Positions 6,731 through 61,807 of a DNA stretch of 64,000 nt are shown here, piece after piece. Source of the DNA: Dehalococcoidia bacterium (lineage in GTDB: Bacteria > Chloroflexota > Dehalococcoidia > Dehalococcoidales > Fen-1064); NCBI GenBank assembly GCA_011170375.1, contig DUEV01000013.1, positions 6,662 to 70,661 of the forward strand, given 5' to 3'. Under the pieces are notes generated by a model. It ran no database searches. It was not told the DNA's origin and saw nothing but the letters and a program-made list of their open reading frames with translations. The position numbers were made by a program, and so were the translations under genes. The stretch's first letter is position 1. Each line of letters begins with the position of its first letter.

Positions 6731-6869
6731 GTGGAGGCCCCATCCCCCTGCCCGCTCGCCTTCGCTGAAGCTTTAGCGCAAGCAGGCCGTCCCTCCGGGA
6801 CTATGGCAGGCGGGCCTGTATCCCCTTCCCCAGAGGGGAAGGGGAAGATATAGTAAGAGGGGCTTCGCC
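6731..6869. repeat. Mosaic intergenic palindromic repeat (modules A, D, B, truncated C)
   Basis: GTGGAGGCCCCATCCCCCTG (6731-6750), GCCTTCGCTGAAGCTTTAGCGCAAGCAGGC (6758-6787), CCCCTTCCCCagaGGGGAAGGGG (6822-6844) and TAAGAGGGGCTTCGCC (6854-6869). Confidence 0.75.
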
Positions 6870-48611: not shown

Positions 48612-48926
48612 GTGGTGGCCCCATCCCCTGTATCCCCTTCCCCAGAGGGGAAGGGGAATTTCATATAAGAGGGGCTAGCGCCCCTCTTAAACTCCCCCTT
48701 AACGGTGTTCAGAATACTGGTTTGCCCCAAAGGCTTCGCCTCTCTTATACTCTCGACTTATAGTCACCACCTAGGGCTCTTGATAGAACAGTACGGTACC
48801 CTTTAAGGTGTGAACGACCCCTGCCAGAAGACTACTCCCTCACCGTTTTGGGGTGTCCAGAGGGGTGAAACCCCTTTGGACGCCTGCCTGCGCGTAGCCT
48901 GCTTACGCTAAAGCTTCAGCGAAGGC
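48612..48926. repeat. Largest mosaic intergenic repeat patch (modules A, B, C, E, D-inverted)
   Basis: Modules present: GTGGTGGCCCCATCCCCTG (48612-48630); CCCCTTCCCCagaGGGGAAGGGG (48634-48656); AAGAGGGGCtagcGCCCCTCTT (48667-48688); a module of about 72 nt at 48804-48875 matching 51978-52049; and GCCTGCTTACGCTAAAGCTTCAGCGAAGGC (48897-48926), the reverse complement of 6758-6787. Confidence 0.8.
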
Positions 48927-51893: not shown

Positions 51894-52076
51894 AAGAGGG
51901 GCTGCGCCCCTCTTAAACTCCTCATATTAGCCTGCGGGCAGAGTAATGAGTATTTTACCTGAAGGAACGCACGCCTATAAGGTGCGAAGGTGCTTGCATA
52001 AAAACCAGTCTTTTCACCGTTTTGGGGAGTCCAGAGGGGTGTAATCCTTCTCAATCTCCCTTTAATAAAGGGAGAT
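51894..52076. repeat. Mosaic intergenic repeat patch (modules C and E plus a 23-nt palindrome)
   Basis: AAGAGGGGCtgcGCCCCTCTTAAACTCC (51894-51921); a module at 51978-52049 matching 48804-48875; and the perfect palindrome ATCTCCCTTTAaTAAAGGGAGAT (52054-52076). Confidence 0.75.
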
Positions 52077-52154
52077 TAAATGCATGTTTCCCCCTTTTTC
52101 AAAGGAGGACCAAGGGGGATTTACAAGGGCGTCCCCCATTGGTTGTACTATTGC

Positions 52155-52183
52155 TTGACATCCTCCCGATTTACTCCTAGACT
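52155..52183 (+). promoter_or_regulatory. Promoter P1 (TTGACA-17-TAGACT), sharing a conserved box with the promoter at 57955
   Basis: TTGACA (52155-52160), 17-nt spacer, TAGACT (52178-52183). 32/42 positions are identical to 57954-57995, including the exact 15-mer CTAGACTGTGGGCAC. Confidence 0.6.
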
Positions 52184-52261
52184 GTGGGCACTGAGACAGC
52201 ATAGAATCGCACCCGGAAGTACAGTTAATAAATAATAATTCGACTAAGGCAGGATAAAGCG

Positions 52262-52633
52262 ATGGCTGAAAGCGTAGACAACATATTGATGCTTCTTAAA
52301 GGATTCACCTTCGATGGTGACACGGGGAGGACAATAAGCGACCTCTATGCCGCCGTGAGTGGGACGGGTTGTACCAGGGACACCCCCTTCGCCATGCCAT
52401 TGTGGCTTGAGGGCGACGACAGACCCGCTGGTGTGAACAGCTATCTGGACCCTGATGGCAAGCGGGTCCATATAGTCTGGCAATCAGACGAAACCGGGGT
52501 ATCACGCGTAATCGACGTTGTTCTCGATGCCCCTTCTCTGGCAAGGGAGAAACACGAAGAAGGCGAAACGTGCGATATCTGCAGCATCGATATGATGAAG
52601 GAAATGTTACAGGGGGATACGGAGGAAGAATAG
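52262..52633 (+). CDS. Hypothetical protein (123 aa, acidic)
   Basis: ORF downstream of P1. I recognised no family. Confidence 0.5.
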   Translation: MAESVDNILMLLKGFTFDGDTGRTISDLYAAVSGTGCTRDTPFAMPLWLEGDDRPAGVNSYLDPDGKRVHIVWQSDETGVSRVIDVVLDAPSLAREKHEEGETCDICSIDMMKEMLQGDTEEE

Positions 52634-52648
52634 CCAAATACTTACACC

Positions 52649-52676
52649 TTGACATTAAAGGATTGCAGGGTATGAA
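52649..52676 (+). promoter_or_regulatory. Candidate internal promoter
   Basis: TTGACA (52649-52654), 16-nt spacer, TATGAA (52671-52676). GGAGGTG RBS before the ATG at 52746. Confidence 0.4.
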
Positions 52677-52745
52677 AATGCTGCTCTCACTGGAGAGGGT
52701 ACTCAGGCACAAGGAGATACTAAGGGCGTAATCTGGAGGTGAACA

Positions 52746-53231
52746 ATGGAAAACCAGAAGATTGATTTTGCAGATTGCATTGATTTGATGAAACAAAGCG
52801 ATTATAGGCATATTCGAAATCTAGTATCATATTTGCGAGCATTAAAAAATAGCTTTGGTGATGACGTAGCAAAAATAGTTGAAGATATCAGTTGTAAAGA
52901 TGCTTTTAATCGTTATAAGAATTTAGCAATTGATCAAGAGGACCGTACTATTGAAAAACTAATCAGTATATTATGGGGAGAAAGGCCAATTCCTGGCTTG
53001 CACCAATATACCTATAAAAAAGAAAATGATGGTTTTCAATTCAATTGTACAGTGTGTCCATATGTTGATATGTTTAAAAAACTCGACGCAACAGAATGGG
53101 GTTATAGGTTATATTGCGCACTAGACCCACCCCTTGTCGAAGGTTTCAATGAAAATATTGGGTTTCGCAGAACAAAAACCCTTATGGAAGGGCATGATTG
53201 CTGTGACCATTTTTACTATTATTTGAAATAA
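52746..53231 (+). CDS. L-2-amino-thiazoline-4-carboxylic acid hydrolase-like (ATC_hydrolase family) protein
   Basis: C-terminal pattern CTVCPYV...WGYRLYCALDPPLVEGFNENIGFRRTKTLMEGHDCCDHF resembles the ATC_hydrolase family. Markedly AT-rich relative to its neighbours. Confidence 0.45.
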   Translation: MENQKIDFADCIDLMKQSDYRHIRNLVSYLRALKNSFGDDVAKIVEDISCKDAFNRYKNLAIDQEDRTIEKLISILWGERPIPGLHQYTYKKENDGFQFNCTVCPYVDMFKKLDATEWGYRLYCALDPPLVEGFNENIGFRRTKTLMEGHDCCDHFYYYLK

Positions 53232-53334
53232 TTAAGGATTTCACGAGATGAAGATGTAGCCCCCACCGGAGAGGGTGCCGAGATACAATGAGATTCTGGG
53301 GTCGCAGCTCCTCCAACCCCAGGAAAAGGAGGAC

Positions 53335-53547
53335 ATGATGCCAGTATATGAATATTACTGCCCCAAGTGTAAGAAAGAGTTCGAGCTAAAGCGTCCCATG
53401 AGTGAATACGACCAACCTGCAGTATGTAGTCAATGCGGTTATAAGGCACAGAAACTGATATCAGGGTTCGCCTCCAAGACCGGCTCGTACCTCCAATCAC
53501 CCAAGCCACTTTTTAGGAAAAGGCAAGCCGGTGGAAAGGCAACCTAG
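53335..53547 (+). CDS. FmdB-family zinc-ribbon protein
   Basis: MMPVYEYYCPKCKKEFELKRPMS...CSQCG. AAGGAGG RBS. Paralogous to 3430-3660. Confidence 0.8.
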   Translation: MMPVYEYYCPKCKKEFELKRPMSEYDQPAVCSQCGYKAQKLISGFASKTGSYLQSPKPLFRKRQAGGKAT

Positions 53548-53559
53548 AGGAGGTCACAG

Positions 53560-53919
53560 ATGACCACAGTAAACAGCTTCAAGTTCGGTTCGATAGTCCT
53601 TGATGGTAAGAAGTACCGTCGTGACGTCTTTCTGTATCCAGATGGCGGCATCAGAAAAAGGAAGGGCGGGTTCTGGATGTTTGGCAGTCACGCTATCAAG
53701 CGAGAGGAGATTGAGGAACTGGTCAAGTCCGCACCAGATGCGCTCATAGTGGGGACCGGCACAGACGGTGTAGCCCAGTTGAACCCGGATGCGGATGCTT
53801 TCCTGAAAGGCTCCGGAGTAGAGTCGGCAGTGGTTCCTTCGCAAGAAGCGGTCGACAAATTCAACGAGCTGTCAGCTCAGGGTAAACGTCCGGCAGCCCT
53901 GATACACATCACCTGTTAA
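53560..53919 (+). CDS. Mth938/NDUFAF3-like (DUF498) domain protein
   Basis: FKFGSIVLDGKKYRRDVFLYPDG...ALIVGTGTDG...AALIHITC matches the Mth938-like pattern. Confidence 0.6.
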   Translation: MTTVNSFKFGSIVLDGKKYRRDVFLYPDGGIRKRKGGFWMFGSHAIKREEIEELVKSAPDALIVGTGTDGVAQLNPDADAFLKGSGVESAVVPSQEAVDKFNELSAQGKRPAALIHITC

Positions 53920-54101
53920 ATAAATAAGACTTAACGTTAGCCTGAAGGGAATACAAAAGCATGAAAGCATTTCGGACCCCGTCCTGGTTCCGGCAAAAGG
54001 GACATACAAAAGATACAAAGGTAAAAGCCCAAGCCAGTAAATCTAAACAGCCAAAGACGAAAAAGTAGCCCTAAACTAATTAATCAATAAGGAGATACGA
54101 T

Positions 54102-55133
54102 ATGGTAGCCGAGCCTGAAGTACTGGCAAGGATGATGGCGGAGGAGATAATAGAACCTGAGTTGCCTATCTGCGACCCGCACCACCATCTGTGGGACCGC
54201 ACTGCCCGCGATGACCGCCCCAGAAACACCTACCTGCTAGACGAGCTGCTGGAGGACATCGGCGACGCCCACAACATCGTCCAGACCGTATTTGTGGAGT
54301 GCCGGTCTATGTACCGAGAGAGGGGGCCCGAGGAGATGCGGCCCATAGGCGAGACGGAGTTCGTGCAGGGCATTGCGGCCCAGAGTGCCAGCGGGCAATA
54401 CGGCATAACCAGAGTTGCCGCCGGGATAGTGGGGCACGCCGACCTCACGCTGGGTGCCGCCGTAGCACCGGTGCTCGAGGCACACATAGCCGCCAGCGTC
54501 AACAGATTTCGCGGGATTCGGCATTCGAGCGTCTGGGATGCCAGCCCTGAACTCACCCGCTATATGAGCCCTCCCAGGGGACTGCTGTTGGATTCTAAGT
54601 TTCGTGAGGGGTTCGGTTACCTGCAGAAATACGGCCTGAGTTTCGATGCCTGGCTCTACCACCACCAGATTACGGAACTGGCCGACCTGGCCAGGGCTTT
54701 TCCAGATACCATCATTATCCTGGACCACGTCGGTGGAATAATCGGCATCGGCCCCTACGCCGGGAGACGCGAGGAAATATTCCAGCAATGGAAGCGCAGC
54801 ATTGCTGAGCTATCGACCTGTCCCAATGTAGTCGTGAAACTCGGTGGTCTCGGCATGCCGGTCTGCGGGTTCGGCTGGGACGAGCGAGCGACCCCACCGG
54901 ACTCGGTCGAGCTGGCTGAGGCCATGGGGCCGTACTTTCTCTGGTGCATTGAGCGGTTCGGGGTCGACCGATGTATGTTCGAGAGTAACTTTCCGGTCGA
55001 TAAGGCGTCGTATTCATACACGGTTATGTGGAACGCCTTCAAACGCATCGCCAAAGACTGCTCCCACTATGAGAAGGCCGCCCTGTTCCACGATACCGCC
55101 GTGAGGGTTTATCGTCTTTCCAGCGGGTACTGA
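54102..55133 (+). CDS. Amidohydrolase-2 (TIM-barrel metal-dependent hydrolase) family protein
   Basis: ICDPHHHLWD N-terminal metal motif, IILDHVGG, FESNFPVD. Confidence 0.75.
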   Translation: MVAEPEVLARMMAEEIIEPELPICDPHHHLWDRTARDDRPRNTYLLDELLEDIGDAHNIVQTVFVECRSMYRERGPEEMRPIGETEFVQGIAAQSASGQYGITRVAAGIVGHADLTLGAAVAPVLEAHIAASVNRFRGIRHSSVWDASPELTRYMSPPRGLLLDSKFREGFGYLQKYGLSFDAWLYHHQITELADLARAFPDTIIILDHVGGIIGIGPYAGRREEIFQQWKRSIAELSTCPNVVVKLGGLGMPVCGFGWDERATPPDSVELAEAMGPYFLWCIERFGVDRCMFESNFPVDKASYSYTVMWNAFKRIAKDCSHYEKAALFHDTAVRVYRLSSGY

Positions 55134-56006: not shown

Positions 56007-56783
56007 CTAGACAGGCCGGAGGGTGCCGCCGAATACCTGCCAGGCCAGAGCCGACTTGGCTACCAGACTCAGTATGATATATGCTCTCTCACCGTAGAGG
56101 TAGTCCCTCCACCGGCCTACCTTCTTATATTGCAACACCATGTTGACCGCGAAGCTATTGAAGAACAGGAATATGGTGAAAAAGATTGCATAGACGAAAC
56201 CCGGAGGTCCTCCCGCCTCGTTACCAGACCCAATGAGGTATATCGCGATGGCAACCCAGGGAATTGCCCCGGCAAACACGCCGAACCAGTACGGTGTCCA
56301 GCTTGTCTTCTCCGTCCTCTGGTTATACAGCTCCATCAGCCACCCGAAAAGAATCATGGTCGCATTGACGGCGAAGATAAGGATAAGGCTGGCGATATCA
56401 TAGATGCCGACCAGCATGGCGATGACCACAATCATCAACGAAGCGCTCAGTGAATACTCCATCCAGCGAGCGTGATTGATGCCCTTCTCCAGATTGCGAG
56501 CATACCAGCCGAAGACACCGGGGGCTGAAATCGAGAAGTGGGCCACCGCCGATATCAGCAGGAAAGCGGCCACCATCGGCCCGATGCGGAGGTCTACGAT
56601 AGTATCATATGATGCTTCTAGTCTGCCTACCTCTGGGTTGAAAACCTGGAATGCGCTGGTAACCGGCAGCGAAAAATCGCTGCTAAGCACCAGCATGAGA
56701 ATACCCTGAACGAGGTGAAAAATACCCATGATGAGGTTGAAACGGCGAAGTCGAGGAATGGATACTCTGGTCTCTTCAGTCAT
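56007..56783 (-). CDS. Heliorhodopsin
   Basis: Full-length similarity to published heliorhodopsins, compared from memory with 48C12: GIFHLVQ, RWMEYSLSASLMIVVIA, NATMILFGW, PGFVYAIF, LFFNSFA, GERAYIILSLVAKSALAWQ (Schiff-base Lys). ATG 56781-56783 with GGAGGGAGG upstream. Confidence 0.9.
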   Translation of the reverse strand: MTEETRVSIPRLRRFNLIMGIFHLVQGILMLVLSSDFSLPVTSAFQVFNPEVGRLEASYDTIVDLRIGPMVAAFLLISAVAHFSISAPGVFGWYARNLEKGINHARWMEYSLSASLMIVVIAMLVGIYDIASLILIFAVNATMILFGWLMELYNQRTEKTSWTPYWFGVFAGAIPWVAIAIYLIGSGNEAGGPPGFVYAIFFTIFLFFNSFAVNMVLQYKKVGRWRDYLYGERAYIILSLVAKSALAWQVFGGTLRPV

Positions 56784-56829
56784 GGCAACACCTCCCTCCT
56801 GTGGTATCGACACGTCCTGGCTGTTGTAC

Positions 56830-57885: not shown

Positions 57886-57928
57886 GTGAGAAACAAGCGG
57901 AGGCCGTCCTACAATTTCGGCAGCCTAC

Positions 57929-57950
57929 AGTCGAATCGCACAATTCGACT
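57929..57950. promoter_or_regulatory. Inverted repeat abutting the -35 of promoter P2
   Basis: AGTCGAAT-cgcaca-ATTCGACT, with 8-bp arms. Ends 4 nt before TTGACA. Confidence 0.4.
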
Positions 57951-57954
57951 TCAC

Positions 57955-57983
57955 TTGACATCACTTTAGTTTACCTCTAGACT
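57955..57983 (+). promoter_or_regulatory. Promoter P2 of the STAND kinase gene, sharing a conserved box with P1
   Basis: TTGACA (57955-57960), 17-nt spacer, TAGACT (57978-57983), followed by GTGGGCAC[C]GAG exactly as at 52184-52195. Confidence 0.6.
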
Positions 57984-58015
57984 GTGGGCACCGAGCCTGT
58001 GCTTACGAGTGAGTC

Positions 58016-61000
58016 GTGAAGTGCCCAAAGTGCCAGACAGAGAATCCAGAAGATGCCAAGTTCTGCAAAGAATGCGCACAGCCGTTAATCGCAGAGCGAG
58101 TGTGTCCACAATGCGGATACACTAATGCACTCGATAGCAAATTCTGTAATAATTGTGCCCATCCTCTAACTGAGCAGGTATCTATACCTGTTCCTGAAGC
58201 ACCCCTCTCCCCCGAACCCACTTCCTTTGCTGGTGGTCGTTATCAGGTCAAACAACTACTCGGTGAAGGCGGTAAGAAGAAGGTCTACCTCGCCCACGAT
58301 AACACTCTCGACCGCGATGTAGCCTTTGCCCTGATAAAGACCGAGAAGCTCGATGACGAAGCCCGCACCCGTATTAAGCGTGAGGCTCAAGCCATGGGCA
58401 GACTCGGTGACCATCCCAATATCGTGACTGTCTACGATTTCGGAGACCATGAGGGCCAGCCCTACATCGTCCTGCCCGTCATGTCGGGAGGTGATATCGA
58501 GGGGCTTATCGAGAAAGCACCTGAACACCGACTCCCTCTTGAGCATGTAATCGGTATTACCAAATCAGTCTGTCAGGGACTGGAGTTTGCCCATTCTAAA
58601 GGTATCATCCACCGCGACCTTAAGCCGGGTAACGTCTGGATGAGCGCTGATGGTACTGCCAAGATAGGTGACTTCGGTCTGGCGGTGGCGGTCGACCTCT
58701 CCCGCCTTACTCAGTCAGGCATGATGGTGGGCACGGTGTCCTATATGCCCCCGGAGCAGGCGATGGGCGGCAAGGTAACACCGAAAGCTGACCTCTACTC
58801 CCTGGGAGCGATGCTCTATGAGATGGTGACCGGGAGGCCACCCTTCATTGGGGACGACTCGGTGGCTATCATCGGGCAGCATATCAACACGTCAGTGGTA
58901 TCGCCCACCTGGCACCGGGCCGACCTGCCAGCAGGACTAGAGGTACTCATCCTGCAACTGCTGGAGAAAGACCCCGAGAAACGACCTAACTCTGCAGGTG
59001 ACGTCCTCAAAGCACTGGAGTCCATCGAGCAGGGTAAGGTGACCGAGTCGGTATCACAGGTAGCGACTGCCCCGGAGAGCCCACTATATAGAAAAGTCTT
59101 TGTTGGCCGTGAACCGGAACAAAAACAGCTACAGGCGGCCTTTGATGGTGCCATGTCTGGGCAGGGTGCATTGATGATGGTAGTGGGAGAGCCGGGTATC
59201 GGTAAGACTGCCCTGTGTGAGCAGCTGGCCACCTACGTAACGCTCAGAGGTGGCAAATACCTTGTCGGTCATTGCTATGAGGAAGGCTCACTGTCACTGC
59301 CCTACTTAGCCTTTGTCGAAGCGATGCGTTCCTATGTGCTGTCAAGAGAGACCAGAGACCTGAGGAAAGAGCTTGGCACCGGGGCGGCTGATGTAGCCCG
59401 CATCGTCTCCGAGGTAAGAGAGAAGCTCAAGGTAGAGCCAAGAACCCCTGAGAGCCCCGAGGAAGAGCGCTACCGGCTGTTTCAGGCTGTTACCAGCTTC
59501 CTTACCAGCGCCGCCAAAGTCCAGCCCTTACTGGTTATATTAGAAGACCTTCACGATGCCGACAAAGGCACGCTGGAGATGCTGACCCATGTATCGAGGC
59601 ATCTATCAGGTGCAAGGCTTCTGATTGTAGGAACCTACCGTGATGTCGAGGTAGACAGGACTCACCCATTATCAGCCGCTTTGGCTGAGCTAAGGCGTGT
59701 CACCACCTTTAACCGTGTCCTGCTGCGGGGCCTCAATGCCGATGAGGTGAGGCGGATGCTGGAGAGCATCGTCAGGCAGGACGTGCCCTGGGGGCTGGCC
59801 GAGGCGGTACACCGCCAGACCGAAGGTAATCCTCTCTTTGTTCAGGAGGTCGTACGCCATATCGTCGAGGAAGGTCTTATTAGTCGGGAAGGGGGACAGT
59901 GGCGGGCTGCCCGGGACACACCACTGGAGATGAGCATCCCCGAGGGGCTACGCGATGTCATTGGCAAGAGACTATCCCTGCTCAGTCCTGAGTGTAATCA
60001 GCTTCTTTCAGTAGCCTCCGTCATAGGACGCGAGTTTGCCCTGGAGACGCTGAAGACTGTGGCTGGCATCAGCGAGGATGTATTTGTTAACGCTCTCAAG
60101 GAGGCAGTACAACTATCGATACTGGAGGAGCGTTCACAGGTCGGTATCATAGCTTACCGTTTCACGCACGCTTTCTTCCGGCAGACACTGTATGAGGAGA
60201 TGATTGCCCCACAGCGACTGCAGCTACACCGGCAGGTAGCACGTGCCCTAGAAACCTTATACACCAGACGCCCTGAGGAGCATGCCGCCGAGCTTGCCGA
60301 GCACTTCTCCCAGTCTACCGACCCCGCTGACCTTACAAAGGCGGTTGAATACGGTGAGATGGCAGCCAAACGTGCTATGAACGTTTACGCCTATGGAGAG
60401 GCGGTGCGTTTGCTTGACCAGGCCCTCAAGGTGCAGAGGGTTCTAGACCCGGATGACAAGGGAAAGGTATGCGACCTGCTACTGGACCTGTGTGATGCCT
60501 TATATCTCGCTGCGGATAACAAACGCATACTTGATATAGAGGCGCCGGCGGCATTTACCCTGGCTGAGAGCCTTGGCGACAGTTCACGAGCTATCCGGGC
60601 CTGTATAATAGCAGTATATACTTATTCCACCGAACTCAGGCTTTTTACTGCTCCTCAATCAGCCGAGTGGGTGGAGCGGTTAGACCGATACGCCACGCCT
60701 GATACCACTGAGCGTGCCCTTGCTGATGTATTTCTCGGAGCTGGGAAATGCCAGACCGGTGAAGCGAGGTTGGGACACAAGCTTATGAGTCAGGCTGTTG
60801 ACCTAGCCCATCGCCTGGGTGACCAAGATACCCTGTTCATGGCTACTGGCACATTTCTCGCCAATATCGGAGCGCCACAGCATGCTGCGGAGAGGATTCG
60901 AGTAGCTGAAGAAGTCTGGTCAAGTTCACACGCTGGATTGAGTCCTATTACGATGTACCCAATGTCTTGGATAGGTGATACCTTCCTCACCATTGGGCAG

Positions 61001-61807
61001 CGGCAGCGAGCCGAGGAGGTCTGTGATGAGCTGCGGGTTTTGGCTCAGCGCGGCGGCGATATCCACCATGAAATCCTATCGGCAGCAAATGACAGTGTCC
61101 TAACTGTGATGGATGGCCGTCTTGACGAAGCTATGGATATGGCTAGACAAACACGGACTCGTGGTAAGGAAACTGGTGTAGAAGTAATCGCCAATCTTTG
61201 GGTAGGTTTTACTAGCATTAGAGTCAGTGTCTATCTTGGTATGTATCTTGAAGCCCTTGAGCGTGTGCTTCGTGGACCCCAGGCAGAATCACAACGTTGC
61301 CTAGTGCTGGCTCATCTGGTACGGAAGGAAGAGGCTTCAGAAATCCTGGAGAGACGTGTGGTGAGTCGCCCCAATATCGGTACCTTGAGAGACGAAAGTC
61401 CGACAGTACCCGACGTCCTATTCCTCGAGGCAGCCGTCCTGATAAGTCACCAGCGAGCTACCGAACTGCTACTGAACCGTTTCAGTGGTAGTGGTCTCTA
61501 CACACCGGGCTTTTGGTATACCACCTGCATCCCTCGTCATCTGGGTGGGGCAGCCGCCTTGCTGGATAGACCAGAGGAAGCCCGCCAACACTACAACGAA
61601 GCCATCAGGGTCTGCACGGAGATGAGGTTCCGTCCGGAGCTGGCCCTCACCCGATTACAGCTTGCCGAGCTGATTCTGGAGCACTACCCCGATGAGAAAT
61701 CAGACGCCTTGGAGCACCTGGACTTCGCCATCAACGAGTTCCGCGAGATGAAGATGCAACCCTCACTTGAGAGGGCGCTGAGGCACAAAGAGATATTGGG
61801 GGCGTAG
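58016..61807 (+). CDS. Multidomain Ser/Thr protein kinase: double zinc ribbon, Hanks kinase, AAA/STAND NTPase, TPR-like C-terminal region
   Basis: Zinc ribbons CPKCQ..CKEC and CPQCG..CNNC. Kinase motifs VAFALIK, HRDLKPGNV, IGDFGLA, SYMPPE. P-loop GEPGIGKT and Walker B LLVILEDLHDAD. About 650 aa of helical repeats. GTG start. Confidence 0.85.
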   Translation: MKCPKCQTENPEDAKFCKECAQPLIAERVCPQCGYTNALDSKFCNNCAHPLTEQVSIPVPEAPLSPEPTSFAGGRYQVKQLLGEGGKKKVYLAHDNTLDRDVAFALIKTEKLDDEARTRIKREAQAMGRLGDHPNIVTVYDFGDHEGQPYIVLPVMSGGDIEGLIEKAPEHRLPLEHVIGITKSVCQGLEFAHSKGIIHRDLKPGNVWMSADGTAKIGDFGLAVAVDLSRLTQSGMMVGTVSYMPPEQAMGGKVTPKADLYSLGAMLYEMVTGRPPFIGDDSVAIIGQHINTSVVSPTWHRADLPAGLEVLILQLLEKDPEKRPNSAGDVLKALESIEQGKVTESVSQVATAPESPLYRKVFVGREPEQKQLQAAFDGAMSGQGALMMVVGEPGIGKTALCEQLATYVTLRGGKYLVGHCYEEGSLSLPYLAFVEAMRSYVLSRETRDLRKELGTGAADVARIVSEVREKLKVEPRTPESPEEERYRLFQAVTSFLTSAAKVQPLLVILEDLHDADKGTLEMLTHVSRHLSGARLLIVGTYRDVEVDRTHPLSAALAELRRVTTFNRVLLRGLNADEVRRMLESIVRQDVPWGLAEAVHRQTEGNPLFVQEVVRHIVEEGLISREGGQWRAARDTPLEMSIPEGLRDVIGKRLSLLSPECNQLLSVASVIGREFALETLKTVAGISEDVFVNALKEAVQLSILEERSQVGIIAYRFTHAFFRQTLYEEMIAPQRLQLHRQVARALETLYTRRPEEHAAELAEHFSQSTDPADLTKAVEYGEMAAKRAMNVYAYGEAVRLLDQALKVQRVLDPDDKGKVCDLLLDLCDALYLAADNKRILDIEAPAAFTLAESLGDSSRAIRACIIAVYTYSTELRLFTAPQSAEWVERLDRYATPDTTERALADVFLGAGKCQTGEARLGHKLMSQAVDLAHRLGDQDTLFMATGTFLANIGAPQHAAERIRVAEEVWSSSHAGLSPITMYPMSWIGDTFLTIGQRQRAEEVCDELRVLAQRGGDIHHEILSAANDSVLTVMDGRLDEAMDMARQTRTRGKETGVEVIANLWVGFTSIRVSVYLGMYLEALERVLRGPQAESQRCLVLAHLVRKEEASEILERRVVSRPNIGTLRDESPTVPDVLFLEAAVLISHQRATELLLNRFSGSGLYTPGFWYTTCIPRHLGGAAALLDRPEEARQHYNEAIRVCTEMRFRPELALTRLQLAELILEHYPDEKSDALEHLDFAINEFREMKMQPSLERALRHKEILGA

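Follow-up and report, generated by a model that had tools for sequence, protein, structure and literature searches.

In a stretch of 64,000 nucleotides from a Dehalococcoidia bacterium (assembly GCA_011170375.1, contig DUEV01000013.1, positions 6,662 to 70,661; hereafter called the window), two nearly identical promoter-like boxes precede unrelated genes. The first, site A (52154-52195), is found upstream of a presumed operon that begins with the gene of a conserved 123-residue protein, and the second, site B (57954-57995), upstream of a gene coding for a large protein with a double zinc ribbon, a Ser/Thr kinase domain, an AAA_16 domain of the STAND type and tetratricopeptide repeats (TPR), hereafter called the kinase gene. 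The two sites are probably core promoters of one lineage-specific class and related by descent, site A being a kinase head that now drives other genes, a reading to which we assign a probability of roughly 0.7. The predicted promoter heads the genes of a much-duplicated Dehalococcoidia kinase family, and site B would be the resident promoter of the member present in the window. Site A most likely derives from the head of a kinase gene because it belongs to the same promoter class, because A and kinase leaders match in register and because relics of kinase gene 3' ends persist in the A operon. An initial annotation, which had linked the two boxes through a common regulator or a common 5' leader, correctly recognized the shared promoter type but missed common descent as its main explanation. 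The A operon and the kinase gene share the promoter type and probably its control.

Two matching boxes in front of unrelated genes

The two 42-nucleotide boxes have the positions and sequences reported in the initial annotation and are identical at 32 of 42 positions. A promoter scan recovered the TTGACA-17-TAGACT architecture at both of them. They display an exact TTGACA -35 hexamer and a TAnnnT -10 hexamer at 17-bp spacing, as in sigma-70-type promoters, and they lie at plausible distances from genes in the same orientation that have ribosome-binding sites: the -10 element ends 78 nucleotides before the ATG at 52262 for site A, and 32 nucleotides before the GTG at 58016 for site B. Site A, on the + strand, would be a core promoter extending from -36 to +6, with the -35 hexamer TTGACA at 52155-52160, a TTTAC motif at 52170-52174, the -10 hexamer TAGACT at 52178-52183, the discriminator GTGGGC at 52184-52189 and a start predicted from the spacing at the A at 52190. 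Site B, also on the + strand and also predicted to extend from -36 to +6, has its -35 hexamer at 57955-57960, TTTAC at 57970-57974, TAGACT at 57978-57983 and, again from the spacing, its putative start at the A at 57990. Orthologous or paralogous copies of site B are found upstream of kinase genes at loci L010, L012-L018 and L091 of our collection.

The ten mismatches between the boxes are clustered: the 5' half of the spacer contains seven, a further two lie directly upstream of the -10 hexamer, and one is at +3. Read along the box, 9/9 identical positions are followed by 0/7 and then by 23/26, which is the best block (88%), and the similarity stops at -36 and at +6. The window contains only two copies of the exact 15-mer shared by the two sites, CTAGACTGTGGGCAC (52177 and 57977), each on the + strand. 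The initial annotation had given about 1e-4 as the expectation for its recurrence, a figure valid only for a word fixed beforehand; if any exact 15-mer pair is admitted, 64 kb should contain about 2.1 direct pairs by chance, and we counted nine separate repeated 15-mer loci in the window. For a 32/42 match, 0.013 direct pairs are expected by chance. The A/B pair is thus unlikely to be fortuitous, yet it is less extreme than the earlier figure implied.

A distinctive promoter class heads the kinase family

Relatives of the kinase were collected by a metagenome search with its 200 N-terminal residues, which yielded more than 498 proteins, and the best 80 loci were retained. TTGACA-17-TAGACT, with at most one mismatch per hexamer, is present in 70 of 81 upstream regions of kinase relatives. 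The signature of the class in these promoters is CTTGACAT-N16-TA(G/C)ACT-GTRG, which combines C at -36, TTGACAT at the -35 element, a spacer of exactly 17 bp, a TA(G/C)ACT -10 hexamer and GTRG directly downstream of it. Among 66 unique sites, TTGAC is invariant (66/66, with one mismatch permitted in anchoring), position -36 is C in 62 and position -29 is T in 63. Position -10 is G in 49 and C in 13, position -9 is A in all 66, position -8 is C in 65, and positions -6 to -3 mostly read GTRG. Almost no conservation is observed upstream of -36 in the kinase-family sites.

We built a weight matrix from 63 kinase-family sites, leaving out those of the window. It attributed 24.9 bits to site B and 23.2 bits to site A, the next best position on either strand of the window scoring 2.8 bits. 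Site A precedes an unrelated gene, and its recognition by an independent model of kinase promoters is the strongest single result of this analysis. Applied to the 562 kb of DNA that we fetched, the matrix yielded 96 matches of at least 12 bits, distributed between kinase genes (75 matches upstream), genes for the 123-residue protein (16), kinase remnants (2) and other genes (3).

Among the exact TTGACA-N17-TAnnnT sites in all the fetched DNA, a TA(G/C/A)ACT hexamer is found in 62/65 kinase or A heads and in 2/21 non-head sites; both of the latter are relics of kinase heads, leaving 0/19 independent ones. The -10 hexamers of the 40 sigma-70-like sites of the window are varied (e.g. TATCAT, TACAAT, TACTAT, TATACT and TAGAAT), and none of these 40 sites harbours TTTAC or GTGGGCAC. 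The probable promoter of rpsL, at about 45945 on the - strand, reads TTGACA-18-TACTAT. These organisms do not use the class as their general promoter, and sites A and B are its only members in the window.

As proposed in the initial annotation, we compared orthologous promoters, and this comparison argues for the conservation of site A: TAGACT is kept upstream of 9/9 distinct orthologs of the 123-residue protein (66-100% amino-acid identity), 8/9 of them with exact TTGACA-17-TAGACT. Their discriminators diverge (GTGGGC, GTGAAC, TTGAGC, ATAAAG, GAGGAT, AATTAG and GAGGAG). The TTTAC and G.GCAC motifs are restricted to the A clade nearest to the window (the window, L005, L103 and L105) and to one kinase subfamily (site B of the window, L010, L012-L018 and L091). 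The 15-mer is therefore two-layered, with 11 class-wide bases (TAGACT, GTGG and usually C at -2, the last lacking in the boxes of the window) and a subfamily-specific remainder.

Site A as the probable head of a former kinase gene

Kinase leaders are of two types. The window kinase gene has the short type 1 leader, ACCGAGCCTGTGCTTACGAGTGAGTC (57990-58015, + strand), located before its GTG start and conserved in L014, L016, L017 and L013. The putative 5' untranslated region of the 123-residue protein gene (52190-52261, + strand, about 72 nucleotides) still resembles a type 2 kinase leader in its first 20 nucleotides or so. A leaders line up with those of type 2 in register and without gaps. When the A leader of L099 and the kinase leader of L091 are compared in this way, 21/34 positions are identical from +7 to +40, compared with 8.7 on average and at most 14 in shifted registers; the aligned stretch takes in the ribosome-binding region and the start codon of the kinase gene. 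Site A of the window shares 34/42 positions with L091 in the box, by a hand count from the alignment, and 10/14 from +7 to +20.

The A operon also harbours what appear to be remnants of the other end of a kinase gene. Relic 1 (52645-52731, + strand; HLD..MKMLLSLERVLRHKEILRA followed by a stop codon) lies between the genes for the 123-residue protein and for ATC_hydrolase, and in a tblastn search with the window kinase it matches residues 1234-1263 with 63% identity and an E-value of 0.005. Relic 2 (53239-53307, + strand), between the ATC_hydrolase and Zn_ribbon_8 genes, is decayed and contains an in-frame stop codon (FHEMKM, the stop, then PPPERVPRYNEILGS). The two relics, first noticed as a 71-nucleotide repeat, correspond to the last 22-30 codons of the kinase gene. 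Relics of kinase 3' ends also follow the gene for the 123-residue protein in L007 and L008, and L103 and L105 harbour more decayed traces of the kinase tail at this place, as judged by eye. Given these 3' relics in the operon, the gene for the 123-residue protein would be located inside a former kinase 'shell' and would have been there already before the lineages separated.

Other genes appear to have been placed behind kinase heads as well. Heads with a truncated zinc-ribbon stub are predicted to drive a DUF3237 gene (L031:291-900) and a SnoaL_2 gene (L062:1848-2520), a head-type promoter in which no stub was seen lies upstream of the gene for a 373-residue Fer4 protein (L064:483-1740), and heads with dead stubs are found in L008 and L010.

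Additional observations were made on these fragments. At the L031 and L062 heads it is the first zinc ribbon that is truncated, as in MKCPKCQTENANGAKFCTACRQ followed by a stop codon, and a second head with an intact kinase gene comes directly after. At L010:554-859 (DUFD01000045.1, from the metagenome-assembled genome W589), a GGGCAC-subfamily kinase head continues into VKCPKC before reaching an in-frame TAG, which represents either a fresh pseudogene or a sequencing error. Tail relics also occur upstream of unrelated genes (L005:12903, L007:10433 and 12325, L008:9928 and 10429, L013:2356 and 1752); among the intergenic tail relics, which end in EFREMKMQPSLERALRHKEILGA and a stop codon, some are open and others contain stops or frameshifts. 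Such relics may persist as a source of translation signals, their HKEIL codons containing AAGGAG just upstream of the start of the next gene. A 13-mer similar to the HKEIL region of the relics, ATAAGGAGATACG at 54087-54099, constitutes the ribosome-binding region of the Amidohydro_2 gene. Finally, a possible decayed further head, for which the evidence is weak, is located just upstream of site B (57906-57950, + strand; TCCTACAAT...GAATCGCAC-AATTCGACT). Its local alignment with the 3' part of box A and the A leader scores 22, compared with a shuffle mean of 14.2 (p ~0.01), and it includes an 8-bp inverted repeat, AGTCGAAT-N6-ATTCGACT, at 57929-57950; this segment may be another head relic or the terminator of the DUF998 gene.

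We propose the following scenario. A kinase paralog would have lost its body, with its head staying in place and coming to drive the gene for the 123-residue protein and its followers. A primary sigma-70-type holoenzyme would bind TTGACA and TAGACT and initiate at 52190 and 57990, in each case an A located seven bases farther downstream. Because they have the same promoter type, the A and B units should respond alike to whatever acts on it. The extra identity between the two boxes (TTTAC at -20 to -16, C at -13, GTGGGCAC, and GAG at +4 to +6) would have been inherited from one kinase subfamily and kept by purifying selection, possibly with gene conversion between the copies. Position -3 is G in both A and B of the window and A in both sites of the closed chromosome CP070842.1; the W589 copies have GAG and GGG. 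We do not claim concerted evolution of A and B, as the W589 copies differ from each other in this way and the agreement at -3 is only a hint.

Several points weigh against this reading. The match between the A leader of the window and that of L091 is marginal from +7 to +40 (14/34, with a control maximum of 13), and gapped local alignments of A with kinase leaders, evaluated by shuffling, were mostly not significant (p from 0.07 to 0.96 for site A of the window). The direction of the transfer, from kinase to A, is deduced from the relics and from the size of the family, and only consensus and spacing underlie the assignment of promoter function and of the +1 positions. The kinase promoters are those of the best 80 matches to the protein of the window and hence a biased sample. 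Lastly, the spacer and the discriminator are conserved above synonymous sites, so that something besides primary-sigma contacts may read the box, and the near-invariant A at -9 and C at -8 exceed what sigma-70 ordinarily demands.

Does a dedicated factor read the box?

Conservation beyond the hexamers, as proposed in the initial annotation, was confirmed. In the GGGCAC subfamily, mean identity reaches 0.72 in the spacer and 0.73 in the discriminator and first transcribed bases, versus 0.51 at fourfold synonymous sites, these estimates being based on 17 and 22 positions and on non-independent pairs; the corresponding values are 0.83 for the first 300 residues of the protein and 0.26 for the upstream flank. 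Because the non-hexamer positions are more conserved than fourfold synonymous sites, they are likely to be under some purifying selection. This conservation, which contrasts with that of the flanks, would be expected if the box were an operator to which a transcription factor, most simply a repressor covering -20 to +6, bound at TTTAC...GTG-NN-CAC-N-GAG, thereby co-regulating the operon and the kinase gene. Such an operator was the main idea of the initial annotation and could be compatible with common descent; we regard it as possible, if unlikely. It is in line with the presence of a small dyad, GTG-NN-CAC, whose variable bases are exactly the central two (GG, AG or AA), and with the retention of TTTAC, C at -13 and G.GCAC by the A clade even in genomes without a neighbouring kinase gene. 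However, the box contains no extended dyad or direct repeat, the small number of positions and the non-independent pairs limit the conservation estimate, and no candidate regulator gene is consistently found nearby. The putative operator features also belong to a single subfamily, and the distant A orthologs and most kinase paralogs are devoid of them but retain the promoter core.

The notion of a regulon defined by the box was not supported. The degenerate pattern TTTRC-N3-TAGAC-N-GTG-NN-CAC-N-GAG was found only 4 times in 185,579 species genomes by an exact search, which would miss diverged members. CP070842.1 accounts for two of the matches, located at its A and B orthologs, and the other two are in W589, upstream of the starts of zinc-ribbon kinase genes. 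The extended box marks two promoters per genome, not many, which further argues against the operator. As for known operators, CIRCE (controlling inverted repeat of chaperone expression), LexA and Fur-like sites were set aside for misfits in both spacing and sequence, by eye and against consensus sequences.

A broader and rather doubtful proposal is that CTTGACAT-N16-TAnACT-GTRG defines a dedicated regulon. A putative sigma or transcription factor would recognize the invariant bases -9A and -8C, together with the spacer and discriminator of the subfamily, and would switch on the whole zinc-ribbon/kinase/STAND family and the genes that have captured its heads. The head and tail segments would moreover be preferred recombination points at which unrelated genes are slotted, cassette-like, into kinase 'shells'.

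We consider it improbable that the reader of the box is an alternative factor of the sigma-70 family (of group 2 or 3, for stress or stationary phase) that prefers a TAnACT hexamer, with its C at -8, and whose regulon would consist of the kinase family plus the captured genes. This hypothesis would account for how little positions -9 (A in 66/66) and -8 (C in 65/66) vary, these being normally the least constrained positions of the -10 element, and for the class specificity of the -10 type (62/65 heads versus 0/19 independent other sites). Sigma-S promoters of Escherichia coli favour C at -13 and TATACT, and C at -13 is present in both A and B. Nevertheless, -13 is A rather than C in most kinase heads, the -35 hexamer is a perfect consensus for the primary sigma factor at the optimal 17-bp spacing, and the primary sigma factor uses TAGACT at mycobacterial ribosomal RNA promoters (PMC1616969, PMC4176334).

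The remaining explanations are far less credible than descent from a kinase head. It is very improbable that a 5' leader RNA made from both sites, such as a riboswitch, an attenuator or the target of a small RNA, is what has been conserved. The identity does extend beyond the -10 element to about +6, and GGGCAC at site B could pair with GTGCCC in codons 2-3. However, with a start at the A at +1, just about six shared bases would be transcribed, and the GAGCAC and GAACAC variants are found without compensating changes in the coding sequence. The common leader suggested in the initial annotation was not supported, as the A and B leaders are unrelated past +6, fold no better than shuffled sequences (z of 0.5 and -0.6, or 1.7 and -1.1 with GTGGGC included) and have no match in Rfam at the gathering score or at E<=1. 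No transfer RNA or transfer-messenger RNA genes were found in the window.

Lastly, that the match arose by chance, or that the box is a dispersed mobile repeat of the MITE (miniature inverted-repeat transposable element) or REP (repetitive extragenic palindrome) kind with no connection to gene starts, is hardly tenable in spite of the two or so 15-mer pairs expected per 64 kb and of the recurrence of kinase heads and tails as fragments at many places, given the 0.013 pairs expected for the 32/42 match, the independent matrix singling out both sites, the orientation of 96/96 matrix matches in 562 kb towards a kinase gene, a kinase remnant, a gene for the 123-residue protein or a captured gene, the sharp onset of conservation at -36, and the lack of terminal inverted repeats and target duplications.

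The A operon and the 123-residue protein

Pfam searches agreed with the genes named downstream of site A in the initial annotation. The first gene (52262-52633, + strand), predicted to be driven by site A, codes for the 123-residue protein, which is conserved and matches no Pfam family above threshold. It is followed on the same strand by the genes for ATC_hydrolase (52746-53231), Zn_ribbon_8 (ending at 53547), DUF498 (53560-53919) and Amidohydro_2 (54102-55133). The region 52262-55133 is presumed to be an operon on the basis of the shared strand and the short gaps; the lone terminator-like site on the + strand (54954) falls within the Amidohydro_2 gene, the last one of the series. The open reading frame called mechanically for the zinc-ribbon protein (53275-53547, + strand) is probably too long at its 5' end, the Zn_ribbon_8 ortholog in CP070842.1 having 67 residues. 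Since relic 2 overlaps the 5' part of this frame, the gene probably starts later.

The 123-residue protein has 117 homologs, and those with a name come from metagenome-assembled genomes of Dehalococcoidia or Dehalococcoidales. Two closed chromosomes, CP070842.1 and CP070645.1, are among the carriers, and contigs of the strain of the window itself, whose genome is a metagenome-assembled one from Dehalococcoidales, are present in several sediment metagenomes. Its gene is always the first of the operon, and the genes that follow vary, including Amidohydro_2, DUF362, methyltransferase or MerR genes. Its AlphaFold2 model has a mean pLDDT (predicted local distance difference test) score of 78.7 and is confident over residues 1-96. 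No PDB fold matched this model at E<=0.001, the best hit being a partial one to a lysozyme inhibitor (E 0.31). The alpha/beta core is predicted with confidence but has no PDB match, and in the alignment Cys104 is invariant, with Cys37 and Cys107 nearly so. The protein could be a small regulatory or metal-binding subunit. The idea that its gene is itself a piece of a kinase gene was rejected, the best BLASTP E-value against the kinase being 1.2.

The kinase gene and its family

The assignment of the gene downstream of site B was likewise upheld by Pfam. It codes for a protein of 1263 residues with DZR (double zinc ribbon), Pkinase, AAA_16 and TPR domains (58016-61807, + strand, GTG start at 58016). 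Its 'tail', which comprises about the last 25 codons (~61733-61807, + strand) and ends in EFREMKMQPSLERALRHKEILGA and the stop codon, is conserved among paralogs and is the part that recurs as relics. Kinase genes are often arranged in tandem, with 4 to about 250 nucleotides separating the conserved tail of one gene from the next head, as in L015/L016 (on a single contig, SMTZ1_10001973), L036:297, L053:2275, L062, L066 and L091:2193; in L036 and L053, the second gene of the tandem has no promoter of its own.

Bacteria harbour expanded families of STAND NTPases and kinases, including PknK/MalT-like proteins with a kinase-AAA-TPR organization and diversifying STAND 'conflict' systems. The family described here resembles them in its order of domains (kinase, AAA_16 of the STAND type and TPR) and in its large expansion of paralogs, with tandem copies and many pseudogene fragments. 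It differs from them by its N-terminal double zinc ribbon and its highly conserved C-terminal tail. A literature search retrieved nothing on this family of kinases, nor on Dehalococcoidia promoters.

The heliorhodopsin-DegV neighbourhood

Genes for heliorhodopsin and DegV are located on the - strand between the A and B units, as the initial annotation had noted and as Pfam searches verified. A functional tie of the boxes to this pair, which their flanking position might have suggested, was not borne out: in the syntenic relatives L103 and L105, the A box is accompanied by heliorhodopsin, DegV and DUF998 while the kinase gene is missing from this place, and the flanking arrangement is thus limited to some genomes. 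In CP070842.1, the order is the same as in the window (A operon, DegV-heliorhodopsin, DUF998 and kinase). The link to heliorhodopsin-DegV is incidental. An earlier preprint already describes the heliorhodopsin-DegV pairing (bioRxiv 10.1101/2021.02.16.431466). The heliorhodopsin open reading frame (56007-56813, - strand) is probably too long at its 5' end, with 268 residues compared with 258 in relatives.

Other repeats and hairpins in the window

An exact repeat of 33 nucleotides, at 6815-6847 and 48627-48659, contains a GC-rich hairpin, TCCCCTTCCCCAGAGGGGAAGGGGA, with a terminator-like call at 48633. A second exact repeat, GCGCCCCTCTTAAACTCC, of 18 nucleotides, occupies 48678-48695 and 51904-51921; the latter copy adjoins a terminator-like hairpin (51894-51914, - strand) about 240 nucleotides upstream of site A. 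A perfect 12-bp palindrome, AATCTCCCTTTA-A-TAAAGGGAGATT (52053-52077), is located in the divergent intergenic region, about 80 nucleotides before site A, and is followed by a CCCCC...GGGGG hairpin; this region is partly conserved in CP070842.1 (L005).

Relation to known systems and significance

Reuse or capture of promoters has been described in prokaryotes under the name of 'putative mobile promoters' (Matus-Garcia, Nijveen and van Passel 2012; PMC3575422). Sites A and B are similar to these in that related promoter DNA precedes non-homologous genes of one genome, with the expression of the recipient rewired and no insertion sequence involved, and the downstream coding sequences, for the 123-residue protein and for the kinase, are non-paralogous. 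In contrast, with 32/42 identical positions (76%) and a best block of 23/26, the pair does not reach the minimum of 80% identity over 50 nucleotides adopted in that study. Other differences are that the source can be identified here, in the head of a now decayed paralog from a large gene family, and that the capture is old, being present in orthologs down to 66% protein identity and retaining relics of the donor's 3' end. Site A is a clear, fairly ordinary and well-documented new case of promoter reuse.

Among Terrabacteria, the -10 hexamer has a precedent in the mycobacterial rrnA PCL1/P3 promoter, TTGAC(T/G)-18-TAGACT, a strong promoter used by the primary sigma factor (PMC1616969, PMC4176334), from which it follows that TAGACT can serve a housekeeping sigma factor even where transcription is strong. 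The likeness consists of the same -10 hexamer and a near-consensus TTGAC -35 element. The differences are that the present sites belong to Chloroflexota, that their spacer is 17 bp rather than 18 bp, that the hexamer is specific to one gene family, and that its role as a promoter is deduced here from the sequence.

The finding accounts for the presence of near-identical promoters on two unrelated units through a history in which a pseudogenised paralog bequeathed its promoter and pieces of its 3' end. It also supplies a sharp, searchable signature by which a very large kinase/STAND family can be recognized in Dehalococcoidia, where hardly any genetics is available. This signature can be used to annotate start sites, to find members and relics of the family and to look for co-expression in metatranscriptomes. 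If a dedicated factor does read positions -9 and -8, this would provide a first handle on the regulation of the kinase family.

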